A stretch of 39,240 nt of DNA from Bacteroidota bacterium (GCA_012838685.1 DUOU01000136.1:1-39240), one strand, 5' to 3'; shown: positions 355 through 27,245, numbered from the stretch's first letter. The notes: a model not told the origin generated them from the letters alone. Numbers and translations: made by a program.

Positions 355-454
355 CACATAAAAAAGATGCCAACTACAAAATAAAAACACCGCTTATAAA
401 ATAAAACAACAGGATACAAAACAAAACGACCATCCACAAAGATATTCTGGAACA
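355..454 (+). repeat. Five phased 20-nt direct repeats (YACAAAAYAAAAC-type), candidate regulator-binding array upstream of the peptide gene
   Basis: The units are cacataaaaaagatgccaac / tacaaaataaaaacaccgct / tataaaataaaacaacagga / tacaaaacaaaacgaccatc / cacaaagatattctggaaca. The array is homologous to 11746-11825. Confidence 0.7.
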
Positions 455-630
455 GCTTCATGACACAAATTAAAATATTCCTGAGATTTGTTTTAATGCA
501 AAGCATGGAAAATGTCCATTAATAACCTTTAAAGTTCTGTTCTATGCTTTTTCGTTGTTGGTAAACCCCAACGACAAAGTGCGCTTAGGCCAAATAATAT
601 GTTTTGTTTTATTAACCAATACTTTTAAAA

Positions 631-876
631 ATGAAAAAAGCGATCAAAATTTTAGGAACTGTTCTTTGCGTTGTTGTGCTGTTTTTAAACCTGTCCATCA
701 ACGGTAAAAATGAGGTGGGCGACACAAGCCTATCCGTGTTGCTGAACAATGCTGATGCCTTGTGTTATGACAATGAATCGTTCCCAATGTGTAACACTGG
801 GAGATGTAACATTTACTCAGAAAATTGTTATCAAGTGTTTAATCCAGAAGGAGACTGTGACCCGACCTACCTTTAA
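631..876 (+). CDS. Small exported Cys-rich peptide precursor, NVEALA-like (81 aa)
   Basis: The N-terminus is MKK plus a hydrophobic segment. An LSVLLNNADAL motif sits where the family has L..ANVEALA. The 37-aa tail has 5 Cys (CYDNESFPMCNTGRCNIYSENCYQVFNPEGDCDPTYL). A hairpin follows the stop codon. Confidence 0.65.
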   Translation: MKKAIKILGTVLCVVVLFLNLSINGKNEVGDTSLSVLLNNADALCYDNESFPMCNTGRCNIYSENCYQVFNPEGDCDPTYL

Positions 877-1968: not shown

Positions 1969-3888
1969 GTGAGACGATATTTTCTTTATTGCTTTATGAT
2001 AGCAATAGTGTTGGGTACACCTTTTATATATTCAGGGGATATTTACAACGGTGTAATTACAGCGAAACAAATTTGGTTTTACTGTGCTATGGCTTTGTTA
2101 ATTTTGATATTTGGCTCTGGCCTTATAAACAGGAAAAGCGTTTTATTAGAACTGAATTCCATTGATATCGCACTTATTGTCTTTTACGCCTACTTTCTTA
2201 TACGTGCAGTCTATACTCCTTTTACGCCATTATTATACAATGTACGATTCCTTAATTATTCTCTTCTTTTATTATTCTATTTTATTGTAAAAAATATTGG
2301 AACAAGTTACTATAGTAAAGAGTCGGGAGAGAATAAAAAGAAAATATTATTCTATGAAATTATCATCGACATATTAATAATTACCGGACTAGTTCAAGCA
2401 ATCTGGGGATTATTACAACTTTATGGGGTCTTGCCCAGTTTACATTCAATATTTAAAATTACAGGTACCTTTTCTAATCCGGCGCCTTATGCAATATATC
2501 TGGCTACAATCTTCTTATTAACGCTGGGAAGACTGTTATTAACGCCCTCTTCATCGTTTTCAAAATCTTCCCACTATATTTCTTTTCTCACGATAATCGT
2601 AATTATTTTGATATTGCCCGCAACAATGAACAGGGCTTCATGGGTTGGGGTTGCTGTAGGATCGTTTATCGTACTTAATTACAGGTACGACTTTTTTAGG
2701 AAAATAAGAAAGATTCTGAACAATATGGCAAAAAAACTACTTGCCCTTACTTTTGTTGTATTAATAGTCGGGTTGTCATGTACAGGTTTATATTTGCTCA
2801 AAAAAGGTTCTTCCGATGGGCGTTTGTTGATATGGGAAGTTACATTGGGGAAGATAGCCGAAAAGCCTTTATTTGGTTATGGAGTGGGACGGTTTGAGGC
2901 GGAATACAACAATTGGCAAGCCGATTTTTTTAAATCACACCCAGACGAAATTGACGGCTCCAAAGGTTTGGTGGCGGGAAATACAATGTATTGTTTCAAT
3001 GAATACCTTGAGATGACTTCTGAACTCGGAATTATAGGTCTGTTATTATTTTTGGCTATTATATTATATAGTTTAAAAGAAACTCATAAAAAGGCGACAA
3101 TAATCGCCCCAAAAGATGATAAAAAAAGGACAGATAAGGAATTAATCGCTATCATAAACATTTTGGTTCCTTCTTTTATTGCCCTTCTGGTAATGGCTTT
3201 GATTTCTATTCCCTTTTATTCGTTGCCCACTTTCATTGTTTACTTTTTGATCTTAGCGTTAATTTCTTCAAGTGTTGGATCTATAAAATACAAAAAATTA
3301 AAGGTTTCACAATTTGTCGGTAGCATTGCAAAATTTGGGTCAGTAATAATCATTTTTTCTGCTTCACTTCTCCTTATGTTGAAGGTAAGGCAACAAATTA
3401 TAACTTTTAAAATATGGGATAATGCAATACATATGTATCAGGCAGGCTATATAAAAGAAGCCCGTAAATCATATTCTGATATTTATATTTCATTGAGATA
3501 TAATGGGTCTTTTCTACAGTACTTTGGCAAAGCTCTGAATATTGCTGAAGAATATCCACAAAGTATAGAAATTCTGGAGCAGGCATTGAAATTCACCTCA
3601 GATGAAGTATTATTTACTACGCTTGGTGACAATTATAAAGCCTTAGAACGATATTCTGATGCAGAAAAAGCCTATCAATATGCTTTCTTAATGGCCCCCA
3701 ATAAGTTATATCCTTTATATCTACTTACAAATTTATATTTTGATTCCGGTCAATATCAAAAAGCGATTAAAATAGCTGAAAAAGCTCTAAATAAAAATAT
3801 AAAAGTTGAATCCACTGCAATAAATGAAATGTTACAGGCGATGAATGAAATTATAATAAAGATAAAAAATGAAGAAGAGGTATTTTGA
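1969..3888 (+). CDS. O-antigen ligase/polymerase (Wzy_C) family membrane protein with C-terminal TPR repeats
   Basis: It is polytopic. It has the Wzy_C-type block NRASWVGVAVG...LLIWEVTLGKIAEKPLFGYGVGRF. The C-terminal ~170 aa contain TPR-like repeats (LGDNYKALERYSDAEKAYQYAFLMAPN..., YFDSGQYQKAIKIAEKAL). The listed start is GTG. Confidence 0.75.
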   Translation: MRRYFLYCFMIAIVLGTPFIYSGDIYNGVITAKQIWFYCAMALLILIFGSGLINRKSVLLELNSIDIALIVFYAYFLIRAVYTPFTPLLYNVRFLNYSLLLLFYFIVKNIGTSYYSKESGENKKKILFYEIIIDILIITGLVQAIWGLLQLYGVLPSLHSIFKITGTFSNPAPYAIYLATIFLLTLGRLLLTPSSSFSKSSHYISFLTIIVIILILPATMNRASWVGVAVGSFIVLNYRYDFFRKIRKILNNMAKKLLALTFVVLIVGLSCTGLYLLKKGSSDGRLLIWEVTLGKIAEKPLFGYGVGRFEAEYNNWQADFFKSHPDEIDGSKGLVAGNTMYCFNEYLEMTSELGIIGLLLFLAIILYSLKETHKKATIIAPKDDKKRTDKELIAIINILVPSFIALLVMALISIPFYSLPTFIVYFLILALISSSVGSIKYKKLKVSQFVGSIAKFGSVIIIFSASLLLMLKVRQQIITFKIWDNAIHMYQAGYIKEARKSYSDIYISLRYNGSFLQYFGKALNIAEEYPQSIEILEQALKFTSDEVLFTTLGDNYKALERYSDAEKAYQYAFLMAPNKLYPLYLLTNLYFDSGQYQKAIKIAEKALNKNIKVESTAINEMLQAMNEIIIKIKNEEEVF

Positions 3889-3954: not shown

Positions 3955-4392
3955 ATGAGAAAAGTCAGTAAAATCGCATGGATATTTTTAGCTTCTTTTG
4001 GGCTACTGGGATTATTGTATTCAGTGTTTTTACTTATCCCTTCCCACATTCATCTGATAGTTAAAAAAACGACCATTGTTTTCGAGACAACCGAATTAGA
4101 TATTGGAGAGATAAACTATAAAGAACCCCGAAAGGCTGAGTTTATTTTTAAGAATACGGGAGGAAATGAACTGATCATATATGATGTCCAACCGTCTTGT
4201 GGATGTACAAATGTAGATTGGACAAGGGAACCGATTAAAAGCGGACAGTCCGGCAAAATAAGTGTTGTTTATGATGCTGAAACAACCGGAAGATTCAATA
4301 AAAGTATAGTAGTTCACTGTAATTGTCACATTGAGAGTATTGTGTTGCAAATTTCAGGGGAGGTTATTGGCAGAGAGAATGAAAGATTTTAA
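3955..4392 (+). CDS. DUF1573 domain protein (membrane-anchored)
   Basis: It has an N-terminal TM segment followed by the hallmark IGEI...FIFKNTGGNELIIYDVQPSCGCT...I.SGQSGKISVVY....GRFNKSIVV. Confidence 0.8.
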   Translation: MRKVSKIAWIFLASFGLLGLLYSVFLLIPSHIHLIVKKTTIVFETTELDIGEINYKEPRKAEFIFKNTGGNELIIYDVQPSCGCTNVDWTREPIKSGQSGKISVVYDAETTGRFNKSIVVHCNCHIESIVLQISGEVIGRENERF

Positions 4393-5254
4393 ACAAGATA
4401 ATAGTATCAAAAAAACACAAGTGCCAATAGAATCTCGAAACGCTTGGCATATTTCTCTTTTAAGGGGCATTGTAATTACCATCTTGATCGGAATATTTTT
4501 ACGTATATTCTTTATAGAGATTTATATGATACCGTCTTCGTCGATGGAACCGACGATTTTATCTGGCGATTTTATTATGGTTAGTAAGATGGCTTACGGG
4601 CCAAGAGTATCAATACCAGAGAAGTTCTTTAAAGAAAATAAGACTGGATACCTACGGATAAAAGGGTGGAACAAAATAAAGTTGGGAGATAAGATTGTAT
4701 TCAATTTTCCCAATTATTCGGTTTCTTTAGATTCTACTTATAAAATCTGGGGAAGGTGTATTGTTAAGCGTTGTTATGGGCTTCCGGGAGATACTGTTTT
4801 AATCAAGAACGAAAAAAGTGGGAACGGAAATATATTGGGCAAAGATGCGACAGATACGCTACAGAAATATAATGTATTCCCTTATGACAGCAACTTGAAA
4901 TGGACCATTGATGATTATGGGCCACTTTATGTCCCCGCTTCTGGTGATGAGGTACAACTAACAAAAAGTACAATTAAAATGTATAAAGATATTTTGCGTT
5001 TTGAGAACCCTAATTGTACAATAACGGACAGTACCATTGTAATAGATGGGGGTCCGCTTTCTCGGTATACTTTTAACTATGACTACTATTTCATGCTTGG
5101 AGATAATTTTTATAATTCGAATGATTCGAGATATTGGGGTTTTTTGCCCGATAGCAATATAATAGGCAAGGTGGTAATGATCCTGTTTTCAGTGGACAAA
5201 AACAAATATGGGTTCAGAAAATTTAGGTTGAACCGGTTATTCAAAATTGTATAG
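4379..5254 (+). CDS. lepB: Signal peptidase I (LepB paralogue)
   Basis: Motifs seen are SSSMEPTILSGD (Ser box), VKRCYGLPGDTV (Lys box) and GDNFYNSNDSRYWGFLP. I take ATG 4379 (MKDFKQ...) as the start rather than 4331. This overlaps the DUF1573 gene by 14 nt. Confidence 0.85.
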   Translation: MKDFKQDNSIKKTQVPIESRNAWHISLLRGIVITILIGIFLRIFFIEIYMIPSSSMEPTILSGDFIMVSKMAYGPRVSIPEKFFKENKTGYLRIKGWNKIKLGDKIVFNFPNYSVSLDSTYKIWGRCIVKRCYGLPGDTVLIKNEKSGNGNILGKDATDTLQKYNVFPYDSNLKWTIDDYGPLYVPASGDEVQLTKSTIKMYKDILRFENPNCTITDSTIVIDGGPLSRYTFNYDYYFMLGDNFYNSNDSRYWGFLPDSNIIGKVVMILFSVDKNKYGFRKFRLNRLFKIV

Positions 5255-6310: not shown

Positions 6311-6325
6311 CATATTTAAGGTACT

Positions 6326-7849
6326 ATGGAAAGAAATTTGAGATCAAATCAGATATTAATATACTTATACATCATAATTACATCGGGGTATTTGATCTGG
6401 AGAACTGTTTTTTCATTGAACATGGATCAGCCAATCGCCTCTGGATTGTTCCTAGCCGCCGATATAATCACGGGAGTTTCTTCAATAATTTTTGTTTTCT
6501 CCTTTTTGAAAGGAGAAAAGGTCTTTTCAGAACCTGTTTTAAGGCATAAGCTTACGGTTGATGTCTTTATACCTACGTTCAATGAAGATGTAAGCATTCT
6601 GAGAGAAACAATTTCCCATTGCGTGGGCATGGATTACCAACATAAAACTTATGTTTTAGATGATGGTAATAGGGAAGAAGTAAGGGTTTTAGCCGAGAAA
6701 CTGGGGGCACAATATATATCGCGCACAGTTAATGAAGACGCCAAAGCTGGTAACCTGAACAATGCATTGGGTAAAACAAGTGGCAATATTATTGCTGTTT
6801 TCGATGCCGATTTTGTTCCTGAGAAGAATTTTATAGTAAAACTTATAGGTTACTTCAATGATGATAAGGTCGCAATAGTTCAGTCCCCCCAATTTTATTA
6901 TAACAGCAACAGTTTTCAGCACAGGAAATTGTTCGGTAAAAAAACATACAATGATCAAGACACCTTTCTCCATATGGTTTTGCCGGCAAGAGCTGACTGG
7001 AACGCCGCTTATTGGATCGGAACAAACGCTCTTATGCGCCGAGAAGCTATTCTATCGATAGGCGGGTTTCCGACAGAATCGGTTACTGAGGACATACTTA
7101 CAAGTATTTATATTCATTCTAAAGGTTGGAACTCGGTATATGTAGATGAACCATTGGCATTTGGATTGGCCCCGACAAATATTTCGCAATATTATACTCA
7201 GAGACTGAGATGGGCGAAAGGTGCTTTTCAAATTTTTCGTAAGAAGAACCCGTTATTTGTTAATGGGTTGTCTTACGTCCAGAGAATGTTTTATTTCTCT
7301 TCTTTATTGCATTTTTTCGAAGGCGCTATTAAGTTAGTTTACTTTGTTTTTCCCGCCTTGTTTTTCATTTTCAAAGTAGTTCCAATAAATACCTCCCCAT
7401 ATGTTATAATCAATATGGTAATATATTTTATTATGGGCCGTATACTTATTTCGGTGATCACAAGGGACAAAACAAACATTTTTTATGATGAAATCTACGC
7501 TGTTATACGCTCGTTTATATATCTGATGGGATTTTCCGCCCTTTTTACGAATAAGAAAATCAGTTTTGCCGTTACACCAAAAAACAATGAATCAAACATC
7601 GGGATAATCAATTTCTTTGGGCCTCTGTCTATTTGTACCTTGAACTTTGTTGTATTAGTCTCGGCAACAATAAATCCTTCCATCATATTAAAGGAAAGTA
7701 TCTTAAATCTGGTCTGTTTTGCATGGTGCATATCTCTGCTAATAAAATCGTCGATAGCCTGCTATTATTGTTTTTCAACTCCATATGACAGCGGCCTCAC
7801 TATTAATGATCAGATTCGATCCAATAAGTCTCTAATAAAAAGAACATGA
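6326..7849 (+). CDS. Processive family-2 glycosyltransferase, cellulose-synthase-like (BcsA-type core, no PilZ domain)
   Basis: Motifs seen are PTFNED, VLDDG, AGNLNNAL, VFDADF, QSPQ, TEDILTS and QRLRWAKG (QxxRW). TM segments flank the catalytic core. At 507 aa the protein ends without a PilZ module. Confidence 0.85.
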   Translation: MERNLRSNQILIYLYIIITSGYLIWRTVFSLNMDQPIASGLFLAADIITGVSSIIFVFSFLKGEKVFSEPVLRHKLTVDVFIPTFNEDVSILRETISHCVGMDYQHKTYVLDDGNREEVRVLAEKLGAQYISRTVNEDAKAGNLNNALGKTSGNIIAVFDADFVPEKNFIVKLIGYFNDDKVAIVQSPQFYYNSNSFQHRKLFGKKTYNDQDTFLHMVLPARADWNAAYWIGTNALMRREAILSIGGFPTESVTEDILTSIYIHSKGWNSVYVDEPLAFGLAPTNISQYYTQRLRWAKGAFQIFRKKNPLFVNGLSYVQRMFYFSSLLHFFEGAIKLVYFVFPALFFIFKVVPINTSPYVIINMVIYFIMGRILISVITRDKTNIFYDEIYAVIRSFIYLMGFSALFTNKKISFAVTPKNNESNIGIINFFGPLSICTLNFVVLVSATINPSIILKESILNLVCFAWCISLLIKSSIACYYCFSTPYDSGLTINDQIRSNKSLIKRT

Positions 7850-10113
7850 AAATTATGGACCTAACGCTCGATTACGTCTATTTTTGTGCCATTATGTGTT
7901 TATACATGTGGGATACTAAGTTTCTTCCTTCCCCCTTGTATTTGGGGAAGCTAAGAAACAGAACAAGGTATTTTTCAAGACTGAAGTGCCTAAGACAAAG
8001 ATTCCTAATAAGAACCTCCTTAATAATTATTCCTTTTCTTTTATTCGGTTGTACAATACAATCGGATACTGAATTCCATATTGAACTACCAGAAATCACA
8101 TTACCTTTTGAGCTTGATGAAATTATTGAAGTTAAAGATTGGATAGCATTGGGCCCTTTTTCCTTTAACACACGAAAACAGGCTCCACAGAATACGTTTC
8201 TTAACGAAGATCTTGTTAAATACAAAATAGATGAGGATAATTTCCTATATGACGATATTAGTAAGATAAACAGAAAGGATTTGGCTCCTTTCATGATTAG
8301 CCAAACAAACGGCTTTATCAAGTTGTTTGATTATGCGGGAGAGATGATTGAAGATAAGAGTAATTTTTATTTATGTAGCTCTATTTTTAGTCCTATTGAA
8401 AGAGAAGTTACCTTAATTGTCGATGGTTCGAATAGTTACAAATTATGGTTTAATCAACAGACTATTTTGAATGTTACGAGGAAACATAATACAAACAAAG
8501 TTGGGGATCGCTTTGTGAATGTCAAATTAAAAAAAGGTTCAAACCTTTTGTTCGTAAAAGTTAACAGGGGAAGCAATGTGAAATCGTGGGGATTTGTTTT
8601 GGGAATATCTTCCGTTTCGAAAGCTAAAGAAGTATACATAAACAATTATTTTAGCGATTTTATTCAGAATCCGATAATAACGGATTCGATCCAAATCTAT
8701 ACTGGGCCATATTCAGATTGCGAAATTCAAATAATGGACGAAGGAAATAATCTTATTATTAAAGATACTGTTACACCCTATAATATTAATGTTGCCGATG
8801 CTAATTTTACGGTTTCAGGATTAAGTACCCTTGAAAATGGTTTTTACAATTGCAGGCTTTACTTCGCAGAAGATTCGATTGAGGAGTTTTTTTATAAAGG
8901 GAACTATATAGATTTAATAGAGAAAATAGATACTGATATAAGGGATCTAGAAATAAGCGAGAAAGAGAAAAATGATCTTCAGGCAGGTTTACAGAGAGTC
9001 TCTTTTTTATCCAACGAGGAAGTCAGTGATTTTTCATCGAGTGAGATACGAATTTTGAACAAAAACCGTGTTTATTGGGCCAAGGCCATAAAAGAATCAG
9101 TTTCCTATGCCGAGACGACTAAAAGCTTAAGAGGAATTGCCGGAACCTCCTTGAGAACCTATACTTCAAACAAAAGTGACCGAATTTATCACTTTGTTTT
9201 TCACGTGGGTAATAATGTATTATTAAAACCAAAGATTCCTTTGATTATAGCTGTTCCTTATGCATTAGAGGGAGAGTCTATGACAGAAGACTGGTATTTA
9301 AGCAATCTTGACCAGATTGAAATAGATAATAAAATGGCGGATGATCACGGATTCGCCATCGTCTGGGTTTATATGGGAGGGAAAAGTTACACTCCTCAGA
9401 TCGGAAGAGAAGATGTTATAAGTGTTATCGAAAGGATTCGAGAAAGTTATGATATAGATACCACTCAAATATATGTACTGGGAGATTGTGAGGGAGGAAG
9501 AAGGGCATTGTTATTGGTTGAGAGGAATCCTGATCTTTTTAGTGGCATTGCTGTAACCTCACCAATAACTTCTTTTGATTACTGGAATGAGGCTCCAATC
9601 AACTATGTTGAAAATTTATATAATGTGCCCATAGTTATTGAACATGGGGAAAACGATGAGGTATCGACGGTCGAAAATTCAAGACAATTTGTGGCCGATG
9701 CGTTAAATTCGGGCTATTCCCCGAAATATATAGAGACTAAAAATAGTCATTTAACTTTTTCTAAGGATTATAGAAGATACGCTTTCATTTTTTTCGATAG
9801 TATTAATAATGTCAAAAAAAATGATCCCCCAGAAATAATTAAATACAGCACTTTGGAAGCTGGTTCCCTTTCTGTCTATTGGATTGAAATAAACAAAATA
9901 GATTCTTTTTCTAGAGCCACAATAATTGCCAAATATAATTCAAATAGTAATGTTTTTAATATTGATTACCAGAACTTAGACTCTTACAAAATTTTGTCGG
10001 ACAAGCTCAAACTAACCAAAGATACATATGTAACAGTATGTACAAACGATACGCTTATATTCAAAGGAAATCTTGAAGAAACGAAAGTATTCTCACATAT
10101 CCGGAACAATTGA
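7846..10113 (+). CDS. Putative lipoprotein with a jelly-roll-like middle region and a C-terminal alpha/beta-hydrolase (dienelactone-hydrolase-like) domain
   Basis: It has an IIIPFLLFGC lipobox-like signal. The C-terminus carries YVLGDCEGG (nucleophile elbow with Cys), EHGENDEVS and NSH. Its ATGA start overlaps the stop of the GT2 gene. The true start is uncertain because a long N-terminal extension precedes the signal. Confidence 0.6.
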   Translation: MKIMDLTLDYVYFCAIMCLYMWDTKFLPSPLYLGKLRNRTRYFSRLKCLRQRFLIRTSLIIIPFLLFGCTIQSDTEFHIELPEITLPFELDEIIEVKDWIALGPFSFNTRKQAPQNTFLNEDLVKYKIDEDNFLYDDISKINRKDLAPFMISQTNGFIKLFDYAGEMIEDKSNFYLCSSIFSPIEREVTLIVDGSNSYKLWFNQQTILNVTRKHNTNKVGDRFVNVKLKKGSNLLFVKVNRGSNVKSWGFVLGISSVSKAKEVYINNYFSDFIQNPIITDSIQIYTGPYSDCEIQIMDEGNNLIIKDTVTPYNINVADANFTVSGLSTLENGFYNCRLYFAEDSIEEFFYKGNYIDLIEKIDTDIRDLEISEKEKNDLQAGLQRVSFLSNEEVSDFSSSEIRILNKNRVYWAKAIKESVSYAETTKSLRGIAGTSLRTYTSNKSDRIYHFVFHVGNNVLLKPKIPLIIAVPYALEGESMTEDWYLSNLDQIEIDNKMADDHGFAIVWVYMGGKSYTPQIGREDVISVIERIRESYDIDTTQIYVLGDCEGGRRALLLVERNPDLFSGIAVTSPITSFDYWNEAPINYVENLYNVPIVIEHGENDEVSTVENSRQFVADALNSGYSPKYIETKNSHLTFSKDYRRYAFIFFDSINNVKKNDPPEIIKYSTLEAGSLSVYWIEINKIDSFSRATIIAKYNSNSNVFNIDYQNLDSYKILSDKLKLTKDTYVTVCTNDTLIFKGNLEETKVFSHIRNN

Positions 10114-11168
10114 TGAAACAAATTTATCTGATTTTTCTTATTTTATTTTTATCCGTTAAAGGTACTCTTTTTTCTCAACCAGTAACAGAGCATGGACAAT
10201 TATGGGTTGACGGATCTAAATTAAAAGACGCAAAAGGCAAAGTTGTGGTGCTTAGGGGGATGAGTTTTGGGTGGCATAACTGGTATTACAGATTTTATAA
10301 TCCTAATGCGGTGAAGTGGTTGTATCAAGATTGGGGATGCTCAGTCTTAAGATTGGCAATAGGGGCAGAGCCTGAAGACGGGTATATTGATAATCCTGAA
10401 TGGACAAAAGAGACTCTGGCATCTGTTGTTGAAGCCGCAATTAAAGAGGGAATATATGTGATAATAGACTGGCATTGTCATAATATTGAATTGGACGGAG
10501 CAAAAGGTTTTTTTACTGAAATGGCGGAACTTTATGGAGAGTATCCAAATGTCATTTATGAAATTATTAATGAACCAGATAACGAACAATGGAGCGATAT
10601 TAAAGCTTATGCCGTTGAAATAATATCAGAAATAAGGAAAATCGATCCTGACAACATTATATTAGTAGGTACACCTACGTGGTCACAAGATGTTGACGTT
10701 GTAGCGGATGATCCTATATTGGGATTTAACAACATAATGTATTCCTTGCATTTCTATGCCGCCTCACATACCCAGAAAATCAGGGACAAGGCCGTTTATG
10801 CTATAGATAAAAGACTTCCTGTTTTTGTTTCAGAATGCTCGTTGTCAAGAGCCGATGGGGATGGGATCTTGGACATAGCTCAATTTAAGAGATGGATAAA
10901 ACTGTTGGGAAAAAATCAAATTAGTTGGGTTTTATGGTCAGTTTCAGATAAAGATGAAGCTTCCGCCGTCTTAAAACCGAGTGCGAATTCAAATGGAACA
11001 TGGGTAAAAGAAGATTTGAGCGATTCGGGGTTATTGGCCAGAACATTACTTAGAAAACACAGCTTACATAGGCATAAAGTTGATATACTCGTTAGCTGCG
11101 CTCTAATTCTTTTACTTTTGACTATATATGTTATGTGTTGTATTATTATTCATAGGAAAAGATTGTAA
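10113..11168 (+). CDS. Glycoside hydrolase family 5 endo-beta-1,4-glucanase (cellulase) with a C-terminal TM anchor
   Basis: Motifs seen are LRGMSFGWHNWY, IIDWHCH, IYEIINEPD (acid/base Glu), HFYAASH and VFVSECS (nucleophile Glu). It has a signal peptide and a hydrophobic tail ILVSCALILLLLTIYVMCCIIIHRKRL. ATG 10113 overlaps the upstream TGA. Confidence 0.85.
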   Translation: MKQIYLIFLILFLSVKGTLFSQPVTEHGQLWVDGSKLKDAKGKVVVLRGMSFGWHNWYYRFYNPNAVKWLYQDWGCSVLRLAIGAEPEDGYIDNPEWTKETLASVVEAAIKEGIYVIIDWHCHNIELDGAKGFFTEMAELYGEYPNVIYEIINEPDNEQWSDIKAYAVEIISEIRKIDPDNIILVGTPTWSQDVDVVADDPILGFNNIMYSLHFYAASHTQKIRDKAVYAIDKRLPVFVSECSLSRADGDGILDIAQFKRWIKLLGKNQISWVLWSVSDKDEASAVLKPSANSNGTWVKEDLSDSGLLARTLLRKHSLHRHKVDILVSCALILLLLTIYVMCCIIIHRKRL

Positions 11169-11321
11169 AATGATCAAGGGGCAATGAAGAAAATTTTTGA
11201 TTCTATTTAAAAGAGAATTTATTATTGAACACTTACCACCTTGGCAAGGTGATGGAGACAAATTAAAACGGTTTTTGCACCAAAATTTTCACAAACAACT
11301 ATTCCTTAATAAAAAAAAGAA

Positions 11322-11720
11322 ATGAGCAAGATGATTTTTTTGGATACTTCGGGGAAAATGCTTCATTATAATTCTAACAAAGCACCCGTTTCAATACGAA
11401 TAGAAGACGTTCTTTTCATTAAAGGGGACGGAAGTTATGTTGAGATTTATGTCGAGGAGAAAACAAAAACCATCTTGGTTCCCTGCCTTTTGCGTTACAT
11501 GGAGGAATTATTGAAAGATAATGATTTTATAAGGTGCCACAACTCATGGTTAGTTAACCTAAATAAAATTGATGCATTTTGTAAAAATGAAATGATGTTG
11601 ATAGTGTCACAATACGTAATTCCTATTTCAAGAAGGGGATGGAAAAACACGAAATGGATATTAGCCGACAGTGGTATTGAGTTTGTTAAAGAAATAAAAT
11701 CCGGTTTAACCAATCTTTGA
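11322..11720 (+). CDS. Stand-alone LytTR-domain DNA-binding protein (no receiver domain)
   Basis: VSIRIEDVLFIKGDGSYVEIYVEEK......LLRYMEELLKDNDFIRCHNSWLVNLNKI......IPISRR fits the LytTR pattern (I.y.e..g.Y..i........l..le..L....F.R.HrS.iVNl..I). It is only 132 aa. Confidence 0.8.
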   Translation: MSKMIFLDTSGKMLHYNSNKAPVSIRIEDVLFIKGDGSYVEIYVEEKTKTILVPCLLRYMEELLKDNDFIRCHNSWLVNLNKIDAFCKNEMMLIVSQYVIPISRRGWKNTKWILADSGIEFVKEIKSGLTNL

Positions 11721-11745
11721 TAAGTCTAAATCTAAAAATGTCGAT

Positions 11746-11825
11746 CACAAAATAAAACGACAGGGCACAAAATAAAACGACAGGATACAAAACAAAAAGA
11801 CCAACTACAAAAAAGATTCAAGAAT
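11746..11825 (+). repeat. Four phased 20-nt direct repeats, starting 26 nt after the LytTR stop codon
   Basis: The units are cacaaaataaaacgacaggg / cacaaaataaaacgacagga / tacaaaacaaaaagaccaac / tacaaaaaagattcaagaat. The first two are 19/20 identical. The array is homologous to 355-454. Confidence 0.75.
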
Positions 11826-11998
11826 AGCTTCTTGGCAAGGAGCAAAATATTTCTGAAATTTGTCTTGAAGATAAACATGGAGGGTGCCCCTAATGACCTT
11901 TAAAAGTTCTGTTTTAGATCGGTTTGTTGTCGAGAAACCCCGAGGGTAAAAAATCGAACAATATATTCTTGCTTCGTTGGCCAATACTTTTAAAAAAG

Positions 11999-12207
11999 AT
12001 GAAAAAAACGATCTAAGTTTTAGAAATTGTTCTTTGCGCCGTTGAGTTGTTTTTAATCTATCGATAAACGGTAAAAGTAGTGCGGGCGACATGAGTTTAT
12101 CTACATTGCCGAACAAGGTTGACACTGAATGTGAAGAAGATGACCTGACGATAATGAACGATAGGGAATGCTATGAATTATCAGGTAAATTATTTTTGGA
12201 ATCCTAA
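11999..12207 (+). pseudogene. Disrupted paralogue of the 631-876 peptide gene
   Basis: It has the same ccaatacttttaaaaa..ATGAAAAAA start context. Codon 6 is TAA where the intact copy has AAA. The homologous ...LSINGK... segment continues in another frame and reads to TAA at 12205-12207, so there is also a frameshift. A residual ATG ORF at 12091-12207 would give 38 aa. Confidence 0.6.
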
Positions 12208-12304
12208 TCATTCATAATGTAACCTGACCTTATTTTAATGATTGAAAATTTAGTCGGAGGTGTGAAATATTTCCATTCCTAATTTTTTATTTTATCAGAT
12301 TTCT

Positions 12305-13486
12305 ATGTTTTTAAAACTATCCAATATATTTTTAGTGATACTATTGTTCACAGCATGTACGAGCATTGTCAAGGTAGAAAACGAAATGTCAGGCAATTTG
12401 GAAGCTTCTATGGGATTAGTTGAGATAGGAGAAAGAGCCTTTTTATTAGATGACAGTACAGCCCCAAAACCGATATACACACAAATGTTTAAAAACTATA
12501 ACGGGGCTAAATATCTTACGTTTCTGAATAAATTTAACAACTCGATCTATTTTTATGATTATGACTCTCTCCAATTTGTAAAAAAGATCGTTTGGCCCAA
12601 GAACGGTCCCAAAGGGATCGGCGCCGCTACGGGCTATCATGTCAAATCTTTGGATTCTATCTATATTTACAATAAAAGCAACATTGAAATTGTCCTTTCA
12701 AATGAAAAAAGCATGGTTCTGGACAGAATTACTCTTTGTGGCAACAGAAAAGATATTAACTGGTTATTTAGATACCCACAATATGATCCCCGAACTGTCA
12801 AACCTTTTATAGAGACCGCTCACGAGCTTTTGCTGACTGGTTTTTATTTTGGATCAATACCTGAATCTATCGTTTCGGATTTCAAATTTACCGCCCGTCT
12901 TGATTTTAAAACGAACGGTGTAGCTTTTAGTCATACATATCCACTCTCGTTGTACGGTTTTGGTTATAACTGGGAAGGGGATCTGTTTACTGAAGTTTAT
13001 AGCGATCTTCATCCAGATGGCGACAAGTTGATACTAAGTTTTCCCGTTTCTCATGATTTGTACATAGCAGACTTGAAAACTGGGGAATACCAAAAGACTT
13101 ATGCAGGAAGTAATTTTGCCAGCACAATCTCATCAATCAATAAAAAGCTAAAGCGCAGTTCAAAAAATGATTTGTTATTGAATATCGTTGTTCAAGATGA
13201 ATATACGGCCATCAAGTACGATAAATACCGAAATGTTTATTACAGGTTTTTATTGAAGTCAATTCCAGTAAACATAAAAAGTGTAGATTGGAAAGAAAAG
13301 CCAATAGCAGTTATTATTTTTGATGAAAATTTCAACTATTTAGGTGAAACCGTCATCGGTACTGGAGAAAACTGGTATTGGCAAAATTCTTTCGTTACCG
13401 AAGAAGGGCTGAACATTGAATATATCGACAATGATCTTGAGGAAAAATACCTCAGATTCAGAATATTTGTGGTTCAAAATCTATAA
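12305..13486 (+). CDS. DUF4221-like lipoprotein (predicted beta-propeller family linked to NVEALA loci)
   Basis: It has the lipobox LLFTAC. The block YLTFLNKFNNSIYFYDYDSLQFVKKIVWPKNGPKGIG matches my recollection of DUF4221. It is 393 aa. Confidence 0.55.
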   Translation: MFLKLSNIFLVILLFTACTSIVKVENEMSGNLEASMGLVEIGERAFLLDDSTAPKPIYTQMFKNYNGAKYLTFLNKFNNSIYFYDYDSLQFVKKIVWPKNGPKGIGAATGYHVKSLDSIYIYNKSNIEIVLSNEKSMVLDRITLCGNRKDINWLFRYPQYDPRTVKPFIETAHELLLTGFYFGSIPESIVSDFKFTARLDFKTNGVAFSHTYPLSLYGFGYNWEGDLFTEVYSDLHPDGDKLILSFPVSHDLYIADLKTGEYQKTYAGSNFASTISSINKKLKRSSKNDLLLNIVVQDEYTAIKYDKYRNVYYRFLLKSIPVNIKSVDWKEKPIAVIIFDENFNYLGETVIGTGENWYWQNSFVTEEGLNIEYIDNDLEEKYLRFRIFVVQNL

Positions 13487-13496
13487 AATCAACTTC

Positions 13497-13961
13497 ATGA
13501 AATATTTTAATATATTTTTTATTATTGTAATACTGTTAATTACAGGATCATGTCAAAAAAAAGCGCATAAAATTGAGAAGAACAACATAATCAAGGCGAT
13601 GGAACAAATGGATGTGGGAGACAACGTGAGTTGGATCGTTATATTGCCTGGTTTAGGCTGCACTGGCTGTATCCAGGAAGCCGAGGTCTTCATGAAAGAT
13701 CATATTAACAACGAGGAGATACTGTTCGTTTTAACAAAAATTTCTTCCCTGAAAATTTTGCAACAAAAAATGGGGATTCAGATAAAAGATTATCAAAATG
13801 TAATTATAGATGCGGGAAATGAATTCGACGTTCGGACCGAAAACAACATATACCCCTGCATTGTCCAATTAAAAACCGGCAAAATTGTGAGACATGAATT
13901 TCAATCTCCACAAAACTCAAATGCTTTTGGAAGACTTAAAGGTATGACATCAGGACAATAG
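13497..13961 (+). CDS. Small lipoprotein with a CxxC motif (possible thioredoxin-fold thiol-disulfide oxidoreductase)
   Basis: I take the start at M28 of the listed ORF (MKYFNIFFIIVILLITGSC, a lipobox). WIVILPGLGCTGCIQEAEVF places a CxxC after a beta-strand, as in thioredoxin-like proteins. Confidence 0.5.
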   Translation: MKYFNIFFIIVILLITGSCQKKAHKIEKNNIIKAMEQMDVGDNVSWIVILPGLGCTGCIQEAEVFMKDHINNEEILFVLTKISSLKILQQKMGIQIKDYQNVIIDAGNEFDVRTENNIYPCIVQLKTGKIVRHEFQSPQNSNAFGRLKGMTSGQ

Positions 13962-13992
13962 TGTAGGATGTTCAAAAGAAGAACAGAATACC

Positions 13993-16404
13993 ATGAAAAA
14001 TTCAATTTACAATCATGAATCGGTGAAGATACCATTTTTGGCGTTGTTGCTGTTCCTGTTTTTTATGCGTAGTATTCCCTGTTTTTCCCAGGCCGATGCC
14101 CTGACTATGGCCAGGCTGGTAGAGCGGATGGACTCGGTTGCCGGGGGCGAGCCTCCCCAGATTGTGTACCTTCAAACGAGCAAGGGGGTTTACGAGCCCA
14201 TGGAGGACCTGTGGTTCAAGGCCTACATCATGGACTCCCGGGCTCACTCTCCATCCAAGTTATGCCAGACCCTTTACCTCGAGATGATAAACGAGAGCTC
14301 CGGACAGGTGGTTTGGCGGGAGAAGTACCTGGCGACGGACGGCTTCGTCGACGGACATGTTTACGTCCACGACACGCTATCGGTCGGGGACTACCTCCTG
14401 GCGGCATACACGAGCCTATCCTATTACGGCGACGACCCGGAGATGAAGGCCGTGAGAAGGGTACAGGTAAGGAGCGAACTTTTGCCCAACTACGACGGAT
14501 GGGTCGGGCCGACAAAAAAAACAATTGTGTCCGAAGAAAAAGAAACCCCTGTCCAGTTCAACACCTTTCCCGAGGGGGGCAACCTTGTAGCGGGCGTTGA
14601 GGGCAGGATAGCGTTCAAGGCGGTGAACCCCGACGGGACTCCCGTCAACGCGAGGGGAACCCTTTTCGAGGGATCGGACGCCCTGTTGGCTTTCGAGAGC
14701 GAACACGACGGCATGGGCAGTTTCATGTTCACGCCGGAGATCGGCAAGGAGTACAGGATACGCCTTTCGGAACCCTATACGGACAGCGTTTACATGTTGC
14801 CGGAAATTTACGGCGAAGGCGTAAGCCTACGGCTGGCTTCCAGGAACGATGATTTCCTGGAGTTCAGGGTATCCCGGGGCCCGTTCGCGAGAGGGGGAAC
14901 CGTCTATCTCATGGGCCAGATACGGGGGATACTGTGCTGCATAGCCAGCGGGGAACTTACGGACGAGCTGACGGTGAGGATACCGCTCGAAGAGTTCCCT
15001 TTCCAGGGGATAGCCGAGTTCACCCTGTTCGACGGCGACCTGGTCCCGATAGCGGAACGACTCGTTTACATTCACCCCGAAAAAAAACTGTACGTCACCA
15101 CCGAACTGGACAAAAACAGATATGATACCAGGGAAAAGGTGACCGTCAAGATAACGGTCAAGGACGAGAACGGGGAGCCGGCGAAGGCCAACCTCGGGGT
15201 GACCGTGCACGACAGACTGCACCAAAACCTGTCGGACCCCCTGAACATGTTCACTTACTGTTACCTGACATCACAACTGAGGGGGAAAATCCACGGTCCT
15301 GGGTACTACTTCGACGAACGAAACAAAGACAGGGAGGAGGCCATGGACCTTCTGATGCTGACACAAGGTTGGAGAAGGTACGTATGGAGCGCCGCTGACC
15401 CCGCGCCGAACGATACAGAGGAGCGACGTGTAGTCTATGACTGGGTGGAAGGAGAACTGGGCGCTAAAGCGATGATGAGAAACAGGGTCTCGTTGGAAGA
15501 GCAGTACGTGAAGGTGTATTTCCCGAACTCGAGCGACGAGGCGTATTTCGTTTCGGCCGACAGCGCAGGGAAATTCGCGATTACGCCGGAACACCTTGAA
15601 GCGGGACGTGGAAGCTACGTCTATATGTCGCCAATGGGGGAGAAAAATCTCGGACTCACGATAGACCTTAAAGATCCGTTCGAGGCTATCGACTTGGCCA
15701 TGAGGGGAAAGGAGACGAACTACCCCCTCGCGGGTACGGCCCGGTCATCCGAAGAGGATGTCCCTTTGGGCCGGTACGTGGAAGGGATGAGGACACTTGA
15801 ACTCCCGGAGGTCACGGTCAAGGCCCGGGGCGAGGCGGTTTTTCGCGACAGGTATATCGGACGCCTGGACAGCATAGCGAAATCCGAAACGGGCGTATGG
15901 GTATGTATCCATGGGTATCTTGAAAACTATATTGAAGGTTACTCCCATGTTACAGCGTGTACTGATCCCACAATAAAAATTAAGCCTGTTGAAGGAGAAA
16001 CATATAGAGTTGTTAAATATAGCGAGGTGAAAGAACATGGAAGAAGGATTGTACTTGATGTCTACGATGTCGTGTACCAACACCCCAAGATCAGCGAGGA
16101 GGAGCTATTGAAGATGAACAATCTGTCGAGGATCAGGGCCTACTATGTACACAGGGAGTTCTACCGGCCGGTGTACGATGAAACGTCTCCTCCCGACGGA
16201 TACCCCGATTTCCGAAACACCCTGCTATGGAGCCCGCTGACGGTCACGGACGAAAACGGGGAGGCAACGGTGGAGTTCTACTGTTCGGACCTAAACACCG
16301 GATTCGTGGGGACAATCGAAGGGCTGAACGGTGAGGGGCTGCTGTGTAACGAGAACTTCGAGTTTTCGGTGATCAAGGCGAAACCCTCCGATCAGGGGAA
16401 TTAA
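13993..16404 (+). CDS. Large secreted MG2/alpha-2-macroglobulin-like N-terminal domain protein, GC-rich
   Basis: It has a signal peptide. It shows YLQTSKGVYEPMEDLWFKAYI...LYLEMINESSGQVVW...VGDYLLAAYTS and repeated Ig-like segments. It shares this N-terminal architecture with the CDS at 38374. Many spurious overlapping ORFs reflect its high GC. Confidence 0.65.
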   Translation: MKNSIYNHESVKIPFLALLLFLFFMRSIPCFSQADALTMARLVERMDSVAGGEPPQIVYLQTSKGVYEPMEDLWFKAYIMDSRAHSPSKLCQTLYLEMINESSGQVVWREKYLATDGFVDGHVYVHDTLSVGDYLLAAYTSLSYYGDDPEMKAVRRVQVRSELLPNYDGWVGPTKKTIVSEEKETPVQFNTFPEGGNLVAGVEGRIAFKAVNPDGTPVNARGTLFEGSDALLAFESEHDGMGSFMFTPEIGKEYRIRLSEPYTDSVYMLPEIYGEGVSLRLASRNDDFLEFRVSRGPFARGGTVYLMGQIRGILCCIASGELTDELTVRIPLEEFPFQGIAEFTLFDGDLVPIAERLVYIHPEKKLYVTTELDKNRYDTREKVTVKITVKDENGEPAKANLGVTVHDRLHQNLSDPLNMFTYCYLTSQLRGKIHGPGYYFDERNKDREEAMDLLMLTQGWRRYVWSAADPAPNDTEERRVVYDWVEGELGAKAMMRNRVSLEEQYVKVYFPNSSDEAYFVSADSAGKFAITPEHLEAGRGSYVYMSPMGEKNLGLTIDLKDPFEAIDLAMRGKETNYPLAGTARSSEEDVPLGRYVEGMRTLELPEVTVKARGEAVFRDRYIGRLDSIAKSETGVWVCIHGYLENYIEGYSHVTACTDPTIKIKPVEGETYRVVKYSEVKEHGRRIVLDVYDVVYQHPKISEEELLKMNNLSRIRAYYVHREFYRPVYDETSPPDGYPDFRNTLLWSPLTVTDENGEATVEFYCSDLNTGFVGTIEGLNGEGLLCNENFEFSVIKAKPSDQGN

Positions 16405-16433
16405 AACAGGATAAAAATTGTATCTTTGAATTT

Positions 16434-16724
16434 ATGAAAGATAAAAATGAGATATTAAATAAATTAACCGATTTGAAGCCAATTTTACGCAGGGACTATT
16501 CTGTCAAGGAAATTGGATTATTTGGTTCTTTCGTCGATAATTCGTTTACAGATGAAAGCGACATAGATTTACTCGTTGAATTTGAAAGACCCATCGGATG
16601 GAAATGCTTTACATTGGAAATTTATCTTGAAAATATTTTTGGGCGTAAAATTGACTTGGTGATCAAAAACGCTTTAAAGGAACAGATTAAAGATAAGATT
16701 TTGAAACAGGTAAATTATGCGTAA
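16434..16724 (+). CDS. mntA: MntA-type nucleotidyltransferase antitoxin (HepT/MNT family)
   Basis: It has the GLFGSFVDNSFTDESDIDLLVEF (GS...DxD) minimal nucleotidyltransferase motif and is 96 aa. Confidence 0.8.
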   Translation: MKDKNEILNKLTDLKPILRRDYSVKEIGLFGSFVDNSFTDESDIDLLVEFERPIGWKCFTLEIYLENIFGRKIDLVIKNALKEQIKDKILKQVNYA

Positions 16725-16851
16725 TGTGAAAAAAGTGGATTATGAAATAATTTGGGATATCGCGACAAATTATTTGCCCGAAAATAAAAATCAGATTGAT
16801 CAGATAATCATAAAAATGAAGTGGTCTAATTGCTTCGGACACTGTTTTTAA
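16717..16851 (+). pseudogene. Truncated HepT (DUF86) toxin remnant, C-terminal tail only
   Basis: A 44-codon ORF overlaps the mntA stop codon. MRNVKKVDYEIIWDIATNYLPENKNQIDQII matches the extreme C-terminus of HepT (VD...vW..v...LP.L...i..i). The Rx4HxY catalytic region is absent. Confidence 0.5.
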
Positions 16852-16910
16852 TTTTCTTAATTTATTTCTTTTATTCGTTCTTTGACAAATATAACCGATT
16901 AGTTTCTTTG

Positions 16911-17039
16911 TTAAGCGGCATTCATGAACTTTACCGCGGGAGAGGCATAATCCAGGATTGTTCCCTTTTATTCTTTCAGCGCCTATATGGCGACCTTGGC
17001 CTTGAAGGAGGCGGTAAATTTTCTTCCAGTTGTTTTCAT
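16911..17039 (-). pseudogene. IS3-family OrfA (HTH_Tnp_1) transposase remnant
   Basis: The minus strand reads MKTTGRKFTASFKAKVAI*ALKE*KGTILDYAS.... This is the typical R.F..EFKAKVALEALK..T..ELA start, with two in-frame stops and no downstream OrfB. Confidence 0.5.
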
Positions 17040-17206
17040 GGTGACAGAAATTATAAAGTTAGTAAATTTCTGTCCAAATTTTTTAGACCATTACAGATTT
17101 ACCAATTCATTGATAACTTGTAGCGTACAAGATGAAAACAATATTACTATTTCCAATTTAGCCAGCGATAGCGGTTATAGGCAGTGGAGGTTGTCGAGGG
17201 TAAAAT

Positions 17207-17278
17207 AAAAAATCCCACACCGGTGAGAGACCTTCGAGGCGTAAGAATCGTCAGGCTCGAAACGGTGTGGGATTTTTA
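17207..17278 (-). terminator. Repeated hairpin element, copy B (terminator position downstream of leuB)
   Basis: It has perfect 11-bp outer arms ATCCCACACCG/CGGTGTGGGAT, with a T-run on the minus strand after the hairpin. It is an inverted copy of 248-309. Confidence 0.65.
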
Positions 17279-17301
17279 TGTAAAAAGCAGTGAAATGTTT
17301 C

Positions 17302-18360: not shown

Positions 18361-18384
18361 ATTTTATGGGTTTAATGGTTAATC

Positions 18385-19926: not shown

Positions 19927-19962
19927 GGTCCATTCTTTTTTGTTTTTGTGATAAGGCCCCTA

Positions 19963-20556: not shown

Positions 20557-20599
20557 ATTTTTTAATCTATCGGCTTTTAAGGAAGCCCGTTGTTTATTG

Positions 20600-22000: not shown

Positions 22001-22053
22001 TTTTTGTTTTATCGTGCGGCTCCTCCGGGTTGGGACTCGCCACTGGCGTTAAA

Positions 22054-23547: not shown

Positions 23548-23681
23548 TATCGTTTTAATAAAATTTTAATAAAAACCGCCATTGATTCAGGGAAGTCGCG
23601 GAAGGGCAGTCCGAAAAAACGCCCTTCCGGCTTCCGGTGATACAACTATTCACGGGACAATCCCGTATTAAAACCTACAGT

Positions 23682-24731: not shown

Positions 24732-24827
24732 ATTAAAAATTTTTAAGTGTATATTATTATGTTAATAGTTTAATCTCTTTTTAATCGCTTTTTGGATATC
24801 GCTTTTACCGACCCCGCGAATATATTA

Positions 24828-25394: not shown

Positions 25395-25503
25395 AATATA
25401 ATTTTGGTTTTAATGGTATGATGGAACCGCGCATGATTGAAAATTATATTCATTACCTGTTTGTGATTCGCGAAATCATGAGGGTTTTCATCTTCTTAAA
25501 TTT

Positions 25504-27216: not shown

Positions 27217-27245
27217 GCTATATCTTTATCTGGTTGTTTCTATTT

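Follow-up and report, generated by a model that had tools for sequence, protein, structure and literature searches.

A LytTR-only regulator and a conserved four-repeat operator linked to a peptide, beta-propeller and CxxC lipoprotein cassette in Bacteroidota

Introduction

We analyzed a stretch of 39,240 nucleotides from a Bacteroidota bacterium (GCA_012838685.1, DUOU01000136.1:1-39240), in the following called the window. This 39 kb contig belongs to a metagenome-assembled genome (MAG) from an anaerobic digester or biogas reactor habitat. It carries the gene of a small protein consisting of a LytTR DNA-binding domain only, followed by an operator of four 20-nt direct repeats, a promoter and a cassette encoding a Cys-rich exported peptide, a beta-propeller lipoprotein and a CxxC lipoprotein. 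We show that this module is a real and conserved variant of LytTR-only regulation, similar to the LytTR regulatory systems (LRS) of Streptococcus mutans, attached to an uncharacterised cassette that is widespread in Bacteroidota. Judging from the sequences compared here, the LytTR-only protein is probably a transcription activator that acts on the four-repeat operators and drives the peptide/propeller/CxxC cassette.

In the LRS of S. mutans membrane inhibitors hold soluble LytTR-only regulators, and bacteriocin genes are activated (Zou et al. 2018, PMC6193735). Two of these regulators, HdrR and BrsR, bind paired 9-bp repeats with 11-12-bp spacers located 4-11 bp upstream of the -35 element (PMC6193735).

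Results

A LytTR-only protein without receiver or kinase

The product of the ORF at 11322-11720 matches the LytTR model PF04397 of Pfam with E=7.4e-17 (61.8 bits, cut-off 22.6) over residues 24-111. Besides LytTR no domain was found in Pfam and the PF00072 receiver is absent, in agreement with a preliminary description of this DNA which had regarded the protein as LytTR-only. In NCBIfam the only matches, all below threshold, were to the LytTR portions of BtsR and AgrA. When the profile of the LytTR-only family was searched against the PDB, it matched 3d6w (E=7e-13), the LytTR domain of AgrA (3bs1, E=2.4e-10) and ComE (4cbv, E=9e-9). A profile search yielded 13 LytTR-only relatives of 107-147 aa at E<=1e-13. 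Ordinary response regulators combining a receiver with a LytTR domain (REC-LytTR) appeared only more weakly in the same search (E>=1e-11) and are set apart from these relatives. An exhaustive search likewise gave stand-alone LytTR proteins, about 60 of its best 150 matches having 105-145 aa.

Neither a histidine kinase nor a receiver domain nor an ABC exporter was found in Pfam and NCBIfam searches of window 1-16.4 kb, as the preliminary description had stated. Scans of genomes and metagenomes with the LytTR alignment returned just ordinary REC-LytTR or membrane LytTR proteins besides the Ignavibacteriaceae MAG described below, and none of nine module proteins matched the PADLOC defence models at E<=1e-3. 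In a plasmid collection searched with the LytTR and CxxC proteins a LytTR-linked module on a plasmid was not found; a Hymenobacter match was rejected, being a 250-aa protein that adjoins a response-regulator gene.

Two four-unit operators in the window

Tandem Repeats Finder detected repeats of period 20 at two positions, 375-427 (operator A) and 11746-11801 (operator B; 2.8 copies, 88% matches). A degenerate fourth unit lengthens both arrays beyond these calls, and operator A has a candidate fifth degenerate unit on its 5' side, starting from about 348. The motif YACAAAAYAAAAC with at most 1 mismatch occurs at 6 sites in 39 kb, compared to 0.67 expected, and none of 100 shuffled sequences (0/100) gave 6. 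All six sites are located inside the two arrays at an exact spacing of 20 nt (375/395/415 and 11746/11766/11786). The four repeats had already been noticed as starting 26 nt past the LytTR stop codon. This is correct for the first unit at 11746, the stop codon ending at 11720, and the region 11746-11825 given before is operator B in another phase.

Promoter B begins 12 nt 3' of the last unit of operator B. Promoters of Bacteroides are of the -33/-7 type, which the TTGACA and TAnnTT(T/C)G elements fit. The two copies of the arrangement, copy A (330-900) and copy B (11715-12270), are paralogous with 81% identity over repeats, promoter, leader and peptide gene. The LytTR gene follows copy A on the same strand at a distance of 10.8 kb, with a hairpin and debris of insertion sequences (IS) in between.

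Gene order of the locus in other lineages

The gene context was readable for eight of the 13 LytTR-only genes, and seven of these eight show the same layout. The seven lineages come from Bacteroidota and Ignavibacteriota metagenomes and their LytTR proteins share 24-70% identity. Downstream of the array the common order is one or more Cys-rich exported peptides, a six-bladed beta-propeller lipoprotein and a CxxC lipoprotein. Further members are a polytopic membrane protein with Wzy_C and TPR domains (Wzy_C/TPR) and a type I signal peptidase (S26). The Ignavibacteriaceae MAG (locus L001, LytTR 46-50% identical) contains two modules: module a is composed of S26, Wzy_C/TPR, LytTR, four repeats, an 88-aa peptide, a TolB_like propeller and a 151-aa CxxC protein, and module b of a second LytTR paralogue with a variant repeat, plus a propeller and a CxxC gene that an IS interrupts. 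In L027 the order is Wzy_C/TPR, LytTR, repeats, two peptides, a DUF5128/DUF4934 propeller, a 211-aa CxxC protein and S26, and the same gene order is found in L030 and L032. In L025/L026 the visible upstream part comprises GT2, hydrolase and GH5 genes plus a PMT-family glycosyltransferase, followed by LytTR, repeats and a peptide starting with MKKTIKILG. The co-localisation of LytTR with peptide, propeller and CxxC lipoprotein that had been pointed out for the window thus recurs in other lineages.

We also sampled cassettes from the CxxC side. All three of them (L036, L038 and L047, the latter from Phocaeicola massiliensis, a cultured human-gut Phocaeicola) have neither LytTR nor repeats. Since the cassette is found without them, LytTR and operator are a regulatory add-on of some cassettes only. 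In the readable loci LytTR and operator occur only where Wzy_C/TPR is present or the upstream region is not visible. The genes drawn in the preliminary description are confirmed, but the module is larger than drawn, including Wzy_C/TPR, S26 and an MG2-domain protein, and its cargo cassette is widespread without LytTR.

One operator register across diverged lineages

To compare the operators, regions were anchored on the -35-like hexamer, giving eight arrays. Seven of the eight share a single register, in which four units of 20 nt and a 12-nt spacer with CCTC at its end precede TTGACA (or a close variant of it), followed after 17 nt by TAnnTT(T/C)G. In the eighth array, that of L032, the offset from the hexamer chosen is about 9 nt. 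The repeat cores would be centred at about -57, -77, -97 and -117 and would all face the same side of the helix. Units far from the promoter are almost identical and close to the consensus and those near it are degenerate, a gradation which suggests cooperative, threshold-like activation. In all seven LytTR-only lineages the 4 x 20-nt array starts inside or just past the LytTR stop codon; mostly it begins within the last LytTR codons, and the repeats then encode the C-terminal ..FRPQTK and ..ITK tails.

The sequence of the repeats varies with the LytTR clade (TACAAAATAAAAC, CCGCTAACAAAAT and GACCAGTTATAAG). The two LytTR paralogues of L001 each adjoin their own repeat variant (ACAAAATAAAAC and CCGCAAACAAAAT), and the non-A flanks of the units (GACC, CCGCT) are conserved, yet differ between LytTR clades. 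A generic scan of the loci for period 20 found arrays only beside LytTR-only genes and at copy A of the window. The same result was obtained when an nhmmer profile of operator and promoter was run over 178 kb of loci. L032 was absent from the profile build, yet it was recovered at E=1.4e-4. With both approaches no array was detected 5' of LytTR or of Wzy_C/TPR in L001, L027, L030 and L032, and no 20-nt array is present in the three LytTR-less cassettes. At 24-30% protein identity unconstrained non-coding DNA would be randomised, so that the conservation of the operator, which is in register across diverged LytTR-only lineages, indicates function. The conservation of the array, on which the preliminary description had made its idea depend, is thereby borne out.

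Exported Cys-rich peptides and their leader

Peptide A of the window has an N-terminal signal or anchor, an ADA (AxA) motif and then a 38-residue core with 5 Cys. Together with 11 peptides of related loci it makes up a set of twelve sharing a Lys-rich/hydrophobic N-terminal segment, a near-invariant A-x-A, often an acidic run, and four conserved Cys. No Pfam or NCBIfam family was found for peptide A. The peptide gene of copy B is broken by a stop at codon 6 and a frameshift, and tblastn recovers its pieces in two different frames. The preliminary description had called this gene a disrupted NVEALA-like one. The disruption is real, but the Pfam model NVEALA (PF14055) gave 0 matches with 8 peptides at E<=10, a search in which the HMMER filters may mask very weak ones. 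The A-x-A of the peptides resembles the ..EALA.. of NVEALA, and we regard the locus peptides as analogous to NVEALA in design only.

A conserved leader of about 170 nt had also been described. It is alignable among close relatives, but not beyond, and it has no stable RNA fold: a structured leader RNA was considered and dropped, with folding z-scores of -1.5 and +0.86 compared to shuffled sequences. Rfam detected nothing in the leaders, the single match in the window being a tRNA.

Behind the peptide A gene there is an AT-rich hairpin (898-918) and then IS debris, and no remnant of a propeller or CxxC gene was detected. The debris between peptide A and Wzy_C/TPR (877-1968) includes an N-terminal fragment of an IS481-family transposase (1479-1880, NF033577, E=6e-13) and non-coding remnants. 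This arrangement is common to all other strains sampled.

Beta-propeller and CxxC lipoproteins

The two lipoproteins encoded behind operator B had been recognised before as DUF4221-like and as a small protein carrying GCTGC, and both assignments hold. The product of 12305-13486 matches DUF4221 (PF13970) with E=4.2e-45 over profile positions 3-310 of 311 and has the lipobox LFTAC. Its sole relative in the PDB is 3s9j, annotated as 'Member of DUF4221 family' (E=8e-14). The propeller partner belongs to DUF4221 in the window and to DUF5128, DUF4934 or TolB_like in the relatives.

In the CxxC lipoprotein, which shows the lipobox ITGSC and GCTGC, the CxxC is invariant in 6 module homologues. Among 57 members of the family C58 is invariant and C55 is present in >=90%, both within an invariant or near-invariant W..LPG.GC.GCIQE, and the pair Y119-P120 is invariant or near-invariant. 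In the AlphaFold2 (AF2) model (pLDDT 87.6) C55xxC58 comes after a strand (46-50) and at the beginning of a helix (56-69). A cis-Pro loop is conserved as well, as expected of a thioredoxin fold. The best PDB matches in Foldseek were FetE (8t4c), 4nmu and ResA (1st9) with probabilities of 0.99-1.0. Thiol:disulfide oxidoreductases or peroxiredoxins make up about the first 30 matches (probability 0.9-1.0, TM 0.4-0.5), and the membrane-anchored oxidoreductases that the model resembles include DsbE and 3fkf from Bacteroides besides FetE and ResA. According to the model the CxxC lipoprotein is an exported thioredoxin-fold thiol:disulfide oxidoreductase of the ResA/TlpA/DsbE class, which fits the disulfide handling guessed for it in the preliminary description. 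The Pfam models for thioredoxin-like proteins (Redoxin, AhpC-TSA) left the window protein unmatched; the L034 homologue alone matches Redoxin, below the cut-off (E=2.4e-4). A sequence search of the PDB with the CxxC lipoprotein returned nothing significant. The family has no Pfam model and comprises at least 219 clusters in Bacteroidales, Sphingobacteriia and Chlorobi/Ignavibacteria.

Candidate membrane partner and signal peptidase

The Wzy_C/TPR gene is located directly upstream of LytTR in L001 (with a 4-nt overlap), L027, L030/31 and L032/33. In the window it also precedes LytTR, at a distance of 7.4 kb, with intervening genes for a DUF1573 protein, S26, a 348-aa protein, a BcsA-like GT2, a 755-aa hydrolase-like protein and a GH5 protein. 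Its product is unrelated to HdrM or BrsM. By analogy with LRS it is a candidate membrane partner of the LytTR protein. The C-terminus is highly conserved (..YKALKRYSEAEEAY..KLYPLYLL..KVES.A.EE..). The Wzy_C loop is known to be periplasmic. From this position, and from the last four helices with their Lys/Arg-rich loops judged roughly by the positive-inside rule, the TPR domain is probably periplasmic.

All catalytic boxes of S26 are present in the window protein: Ser (SSSMEPT), Lys (KRCYGLPGD) and GDNxxxSxDSR in the form of GDNFYNSNDSRYWG. By these motifs the peptidase looks active. The gene recurs in L001, L027, L034, L036 and L047.

Features of the window and neighboring regions

Coordinates of all features are compiled in Table 1.

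Table 1. Features of the window. Positions are counted from the first nucleotide of the window.
Feature	Position	Strand	Evidence
Operator A, four 20-nt direct repeats, core TACAAAATAAAAC	368..447	+	Tandem Repeats Finder, motif statistics, register, nhmmer E=1.6e-20
Promoter A: ATGACA 460-465, 17 nt, GAGATTTG 483-490	460..490	+	sequence reading, array alignment, strain comparison
Peptide A, 81 aa, intact	631..876	+	ORF, alignment with 11 peptides of related loci
Wzy_C (O-antigen-ligase-like) polytopic membrane protein with C-terminal TPR	1969..3888	+	Pfam Wzy_C E=3.7e-15 and TPR
Type I signal peptidase (S26), probable start 4379	4331..5254	+	PF10502 E=7e-33, TIGR02227 E=3e-32
LytTR-only DNA-binding protein, 132 aa, proposed activator	11322..11720	+	Pfam PF04397
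Operator B, four 20-nt direct repeats	11740..11819	+	Tandem Repeats Finder, motif statistics, register, nhmmer E=1.1e-20
Promoter B: TTGGCA 11832-11837, 17 nt, GAAATTTG 11855-11862	11832..11862	+	alignment of 8 arrays
Pseudogene of peptide-A paralogue (copy B)	11999..12207	+	DNA alignment with copy A; tblastn
DUF4221 six-bladed beta-propeller lipoprotein, 393 aa	12305..13486	+	Pfam, lipobox LFTAC
CxxC lipoprotein, 154 aa	13497..13961	+	lipobox ITGSC, GCTGC, AF2 model, Foldseek
MG2-domain protein, 803 aa, syntenic cassette neighbour	13993..16404	+	Pfam MG2 E=4e-7, below cut-off

We compared the copies with other strains of the same locus. Between copy A and seven other metagenome contigs (among L039-L046) there are 10 differences within 67 nt of operator and promoter (404-470), and zero differences over the 530 nt past this cluster. 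At promoter A the other strains have the consensus CCTCTTGACA, the window CTTCATGACA. The clustered differences may stem from gene conversion between copies A and B or from a decay of operator A in the window strain. Copy B is 100% identical in three other metagenome contigs. Directly before operator A an inverted repeat (CCACACCG..CGGTGTGG, 251-318) is followed by a T-run. The window starts inside a gene, positions 1-190 being the 3' end of another DUF5128/DUF4934 propeller gene. Further upstream, as seen in L039 (5404-6561 region), a protein with a Por_Secre_tail domain of the type IX secretion system (T9SS) is encoded.

Between S26 and LytTR the window contains a polysaccharide-type block (5264-11168). 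Its members are a 348-aa membrane-anchored protein without family, a BcsA-like GT2 (TIGR03030 E=4e-100, below the cut-off), a 755-aa protein with weak S9/alpha-beta-hydrolase matches and a GH5 cellulase with a C-terminal hydrophobic tail.

In the window, L036 and L047 the MG2 gene follows the CxxC gene; the MG2 proteins of the window and L047 are 40% identical. GC contents in the window are 34-35% for LytTR, DUF4221 and CxxC, 54% for MG2, 34% for the next 0.9 kb and 52% for leuB (13990-17301); in L047 (5766-9760) they are 33% for DUF4221, 30% for CxxC and 48% for MG2. A horizontally acquired island with its edge at 13,990, where the GC content jumps, was considered and withdrawn because Phocaeicola also has a GC-rich MG2 gene syntenic with an AT-rich cassette. 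AT-rich cassettes may have been swapped next to a conserved GC-rich anchor gene. Past MG2 an AT-rich pair of ORFs is found at 16434-16851, the first nucleotidyltransferase-like (..DIDLLVEF..) and the second short and overlapping. Judged by eye from its sequence, the pair resembles an MNT/HEPN toxin-antitoxin. The minus strand of 17302-29069 carries a leu/ilv operon (leuB, two LeuA-like HMGL genes, leuD, leuC, ilvC, acetolactate synthase large subunit, ilvD). The presence of two LeuA paralogues suggests that one is a citramalate or homocitrate-type synthase.

Finally, tandem 11-nt units with GAATGAC / GTCATTC were noticed in L001 (9844-9921, 10519-10549, 17137-17179 and 5945-6000) and in leaders of L030 (about 1150-1175) and L032 (about 830-990). 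Such arrays are located in several intergenic regions, in 5' leaders past putative LytTR-dependent promoters and in the Wzy_C/TPR coding region of L001.

Discussion

The sequences show the domain identities, the operator architecture, its conservation and the exclusive co-occurrence of the arrays with LytTR-only genes. From these we infer that the LytTR-only protein binds the arrays and probably activates the cassette. Several LytTR protomers would fill the 20-bp-phased repeats on the same side of the helix and bring in RNA polymerase. The array ends 12 bp before the -33/-35 element, and the promoter is of the type known from Bacteroidota (TTGACA-N17-TAnnTTTG). A single regulator would serve both operators of the window, operator A driving the intact 81-aa peptide and operator B the dead peptide gene, the DUF4221 lipoprotein and the thioredoxin-like CxxC lipoprotein. 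The cargo may represent an export and maturation cassette for small disulfide-rich peptides: the peptide would enter the membrane by its N-terminal signal or anchor, the locus-encoded S26 peptidase would probably free it at AxA, and the CxxC lipoprotein would oxidise it. For the beta-propeller a role in binding, maturation or immunity is possible. LytTR activity would most likely be set by the abundance of the protein, or by the upstream-encoded Wzy_C/TPR protein in the way the membrane inhibitors of LRS act.

Several observations weigh against this interpretation or narrow it. All loci are homologous, so their recurrence reflects the conservation of one ancestral design and not independent invention. 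In the lineage P0013 (L034/L035) LytTR-only genes are located among beta-propeller cassettes, and an array is not detectable. Two LytTR-linked cassettes, copy B of the window and module b of L001, have a dead peptide gene or none, so the peptide is not obligatory cargo. Furthermore, AxA lies about 20 residues past the hydrophobic segment, a larger distance than at canonical signal peptidase I sites. Intrinsic DNA curvature could contribute to the effect of the repeats, which are A-rich. Finally, since the arrays are located 3' of the regulator gene, the positive autoregulation that defines LRS is not evident.

With regard to P0013, L035 contains at 871-1951 two tandem LytTR-only genes (120 aa and 107 aa) between beta-propeller genes, again with no 20-nt array detected. 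This clade may use a different operator.

A more far-reaching version of the model is a kinase-free peptide-sensing circuit of the Fibrobacteres-Chlorobi-Bacteroidetes (FCB) group. Here the exported, disulfide-bonded peptide would be an autoinducer bound by the probably periplasmic TPR domain. Wzy_C/TPR would keep LytTR inactive as long as little peptide is present and release it upon accumulation, and LytTR would then fill the operators cooperatively, turning on both the production of the peptide and the propeller/thioredoxin cassette. We regard this version as unlikely.

The position of the arrays next to the regulator gene raises the question of negative action: LytTR bound past its own stop codon could block read-through from upstream, or repress the cassette until it is released. 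A terminator-like site between the LytTR gene and the DUF4221 gene was not found, and the overlap of the array with the 3' end of the LytTR ORF in most lineages would also suit such a role. On the other hand, a conserved promoter follows 12 nt past the array in seven of eight arrays, and neither its -33 nor its -7 element is overlapped. With the array clear of both elements and at a fixed promoter distance the geometry is that of an activator, as in HdrR, BrsR and AgrA. Negative action is therefore improbable in our opinion.

Equally improbable is a regulator of the upstream envelope and polysaccharide genes (Wzy_C/TPR, BcsA-like GT2, GH5, PMT in L025), comparable to AlgR with alginate, to which the cassette would be a mere neighbour. 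In its favour, a tightly packed block of co-oriented genes ends with LytTR in the window and in L025, and in L001 LytTR overlaps the Wzy_C/TPR stop codon. However, L001, L027, L030 and L032 lack the GT2/GH5 block but keep Wzy_C/TPR, LytTR, operator and cassette side by side, and apart from copy A of the window the nhmmer operator profile found no site upstream of those genes.

The repeats could also be an A-tract or UP-element-like curved region or the target of another regulator, with LytTR being incidental. The units are indeed A-rich and phased at about two helical turns, and their core ACAAAAT is unlike the classical LytTR consensus reported by Nikolskaya and Galperin. This reading has little probability, since arrays adjoin only LytTR-only genes in about 178 kb (plus copy A of the window) and are absent from the three LytTR-less cassettes, and since the conserved non-A flanks vary by LytTR clade, including the two paralogues of one genome. 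That the arrays are iterons or parts of a mobile element such as a replication origin or transposon end is hardly credible: although tandem arrays of about 20 nt lie by the gene of a small DNA-binding protein in an AT-rich segment with IS fragments, Rep, integrase and partition genes are absent, the arrays are locked to promoter and cargo operon, the leu/ilv genes point to a chromosomal context, and the plasmid searches gave no plasmid-borne module.

Activation of the cassette by the LytTR-only protein as proposed here has its closest counterpart in the LRS HdrRM and BrsRM. Common to both are a soluble LytTR-only regulator without receiver or kinase, direct repeats of about two helical turns located about 10 bp upstream of -35 (the array here ends 12 nt before it) and, here in most lineages, a membrane protein encoded next to the regulator. 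The characterised targets of LRS are peptide bacteriocin genes. The system described here differs in having four units with a 20-bp period instead of two 9-mers with 11-12-bp spacers, and its operator, placed 3' of the regulator gene, would control a separate operon with the cargo. Wzy_C/TPR, encoded upstream as the neighbouring membrane protein, is no relative of HdrM/BrsM, the promoter is of the Bacteroidota -33/-7 type, and the cargo is a peptide, beta-propeller and thioredoxin cassette.

With AgrA, ComE, PlnC/D and BlpR of Firmicutes the system shares the LytTR domain, phased direct repeats and, as proposed here, small exported peptides as targets. In contrast to the AgrA/ComE type it has four units and no receiver, histidine kinase or AgrB- or ComAB-type processing exporter. 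The absence of receiver and kinase means that it is not a two-component circuit of the Agr/Com/Pln type.

Bacteroidetocin loci encode secreted 4-Cys peptides with a GG leader, an ABC/C39 transporter, a protein with five transmembrane segments (5-TM) and a dedicated thiol oxidoreductase gene (Coyne et al. 2019, PMC6671954). They likewise belong to Bacteroidota and combine small 4-Cys peptides with a locus-encoded thiol oxidoreductase, whereas our loci have an AxA motif, an S26 signal peptidase, a beta-propeller lipoprotein and a LytTR regulator. Since GG leader and ABC/C39 transporter are absent in the window and the related loci, these are not bacteroidetocin loci. The NVEALA/six-bladed propeller loci of Bacteroidales have the same kind of propeller partner and small peptides with a hydrophobic N-terminus, but the peptides studied here do not score against the NVEALA model.

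The preliminary description knew of no equivalent circuit for NVEALA/beta-propeller loci of Bacteroidota. Our literature search likewise found nothing on the function of such loci or on NVEALA, and for DUF4221, DUF5128, DUF4934, DUF4933 and BF3164 it returned only BF3164, mentioned in passing in a phylogenetic survey. However, the LRS of S. mutans are a known LytTR-only paradigm (PMC6193735), so the wiring is a variant and not unprecedented.

Our findings extend kinase-free LytTR regulation from Firmicutes to the FCB group, with a four-unit operator and a different candidate membrane partner. Bacteroidota commonly carry cassettes of a Cys-rich peptide, a DUF4221/DUF5128/TolB-like propeller and a CxxC lipoprotein. 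With a regulator of its own and a precisely delimited operator such a cassette becomes accessible to experiments, and expression of LytTR is a possible switch for it. Should the membrane partner sense the peptide, a phylum in which peptide signalling is essentially unknown would have a new kind of cell-to-cell signalling. If true, the peptide-sensing circuit would have no described predecessor among peptide quorum-sensing or LRS-type circuits of Bacteroidota or Ignavibacteriota, and it would assign a first function to the DUF4221/DUF5128 cassettes.

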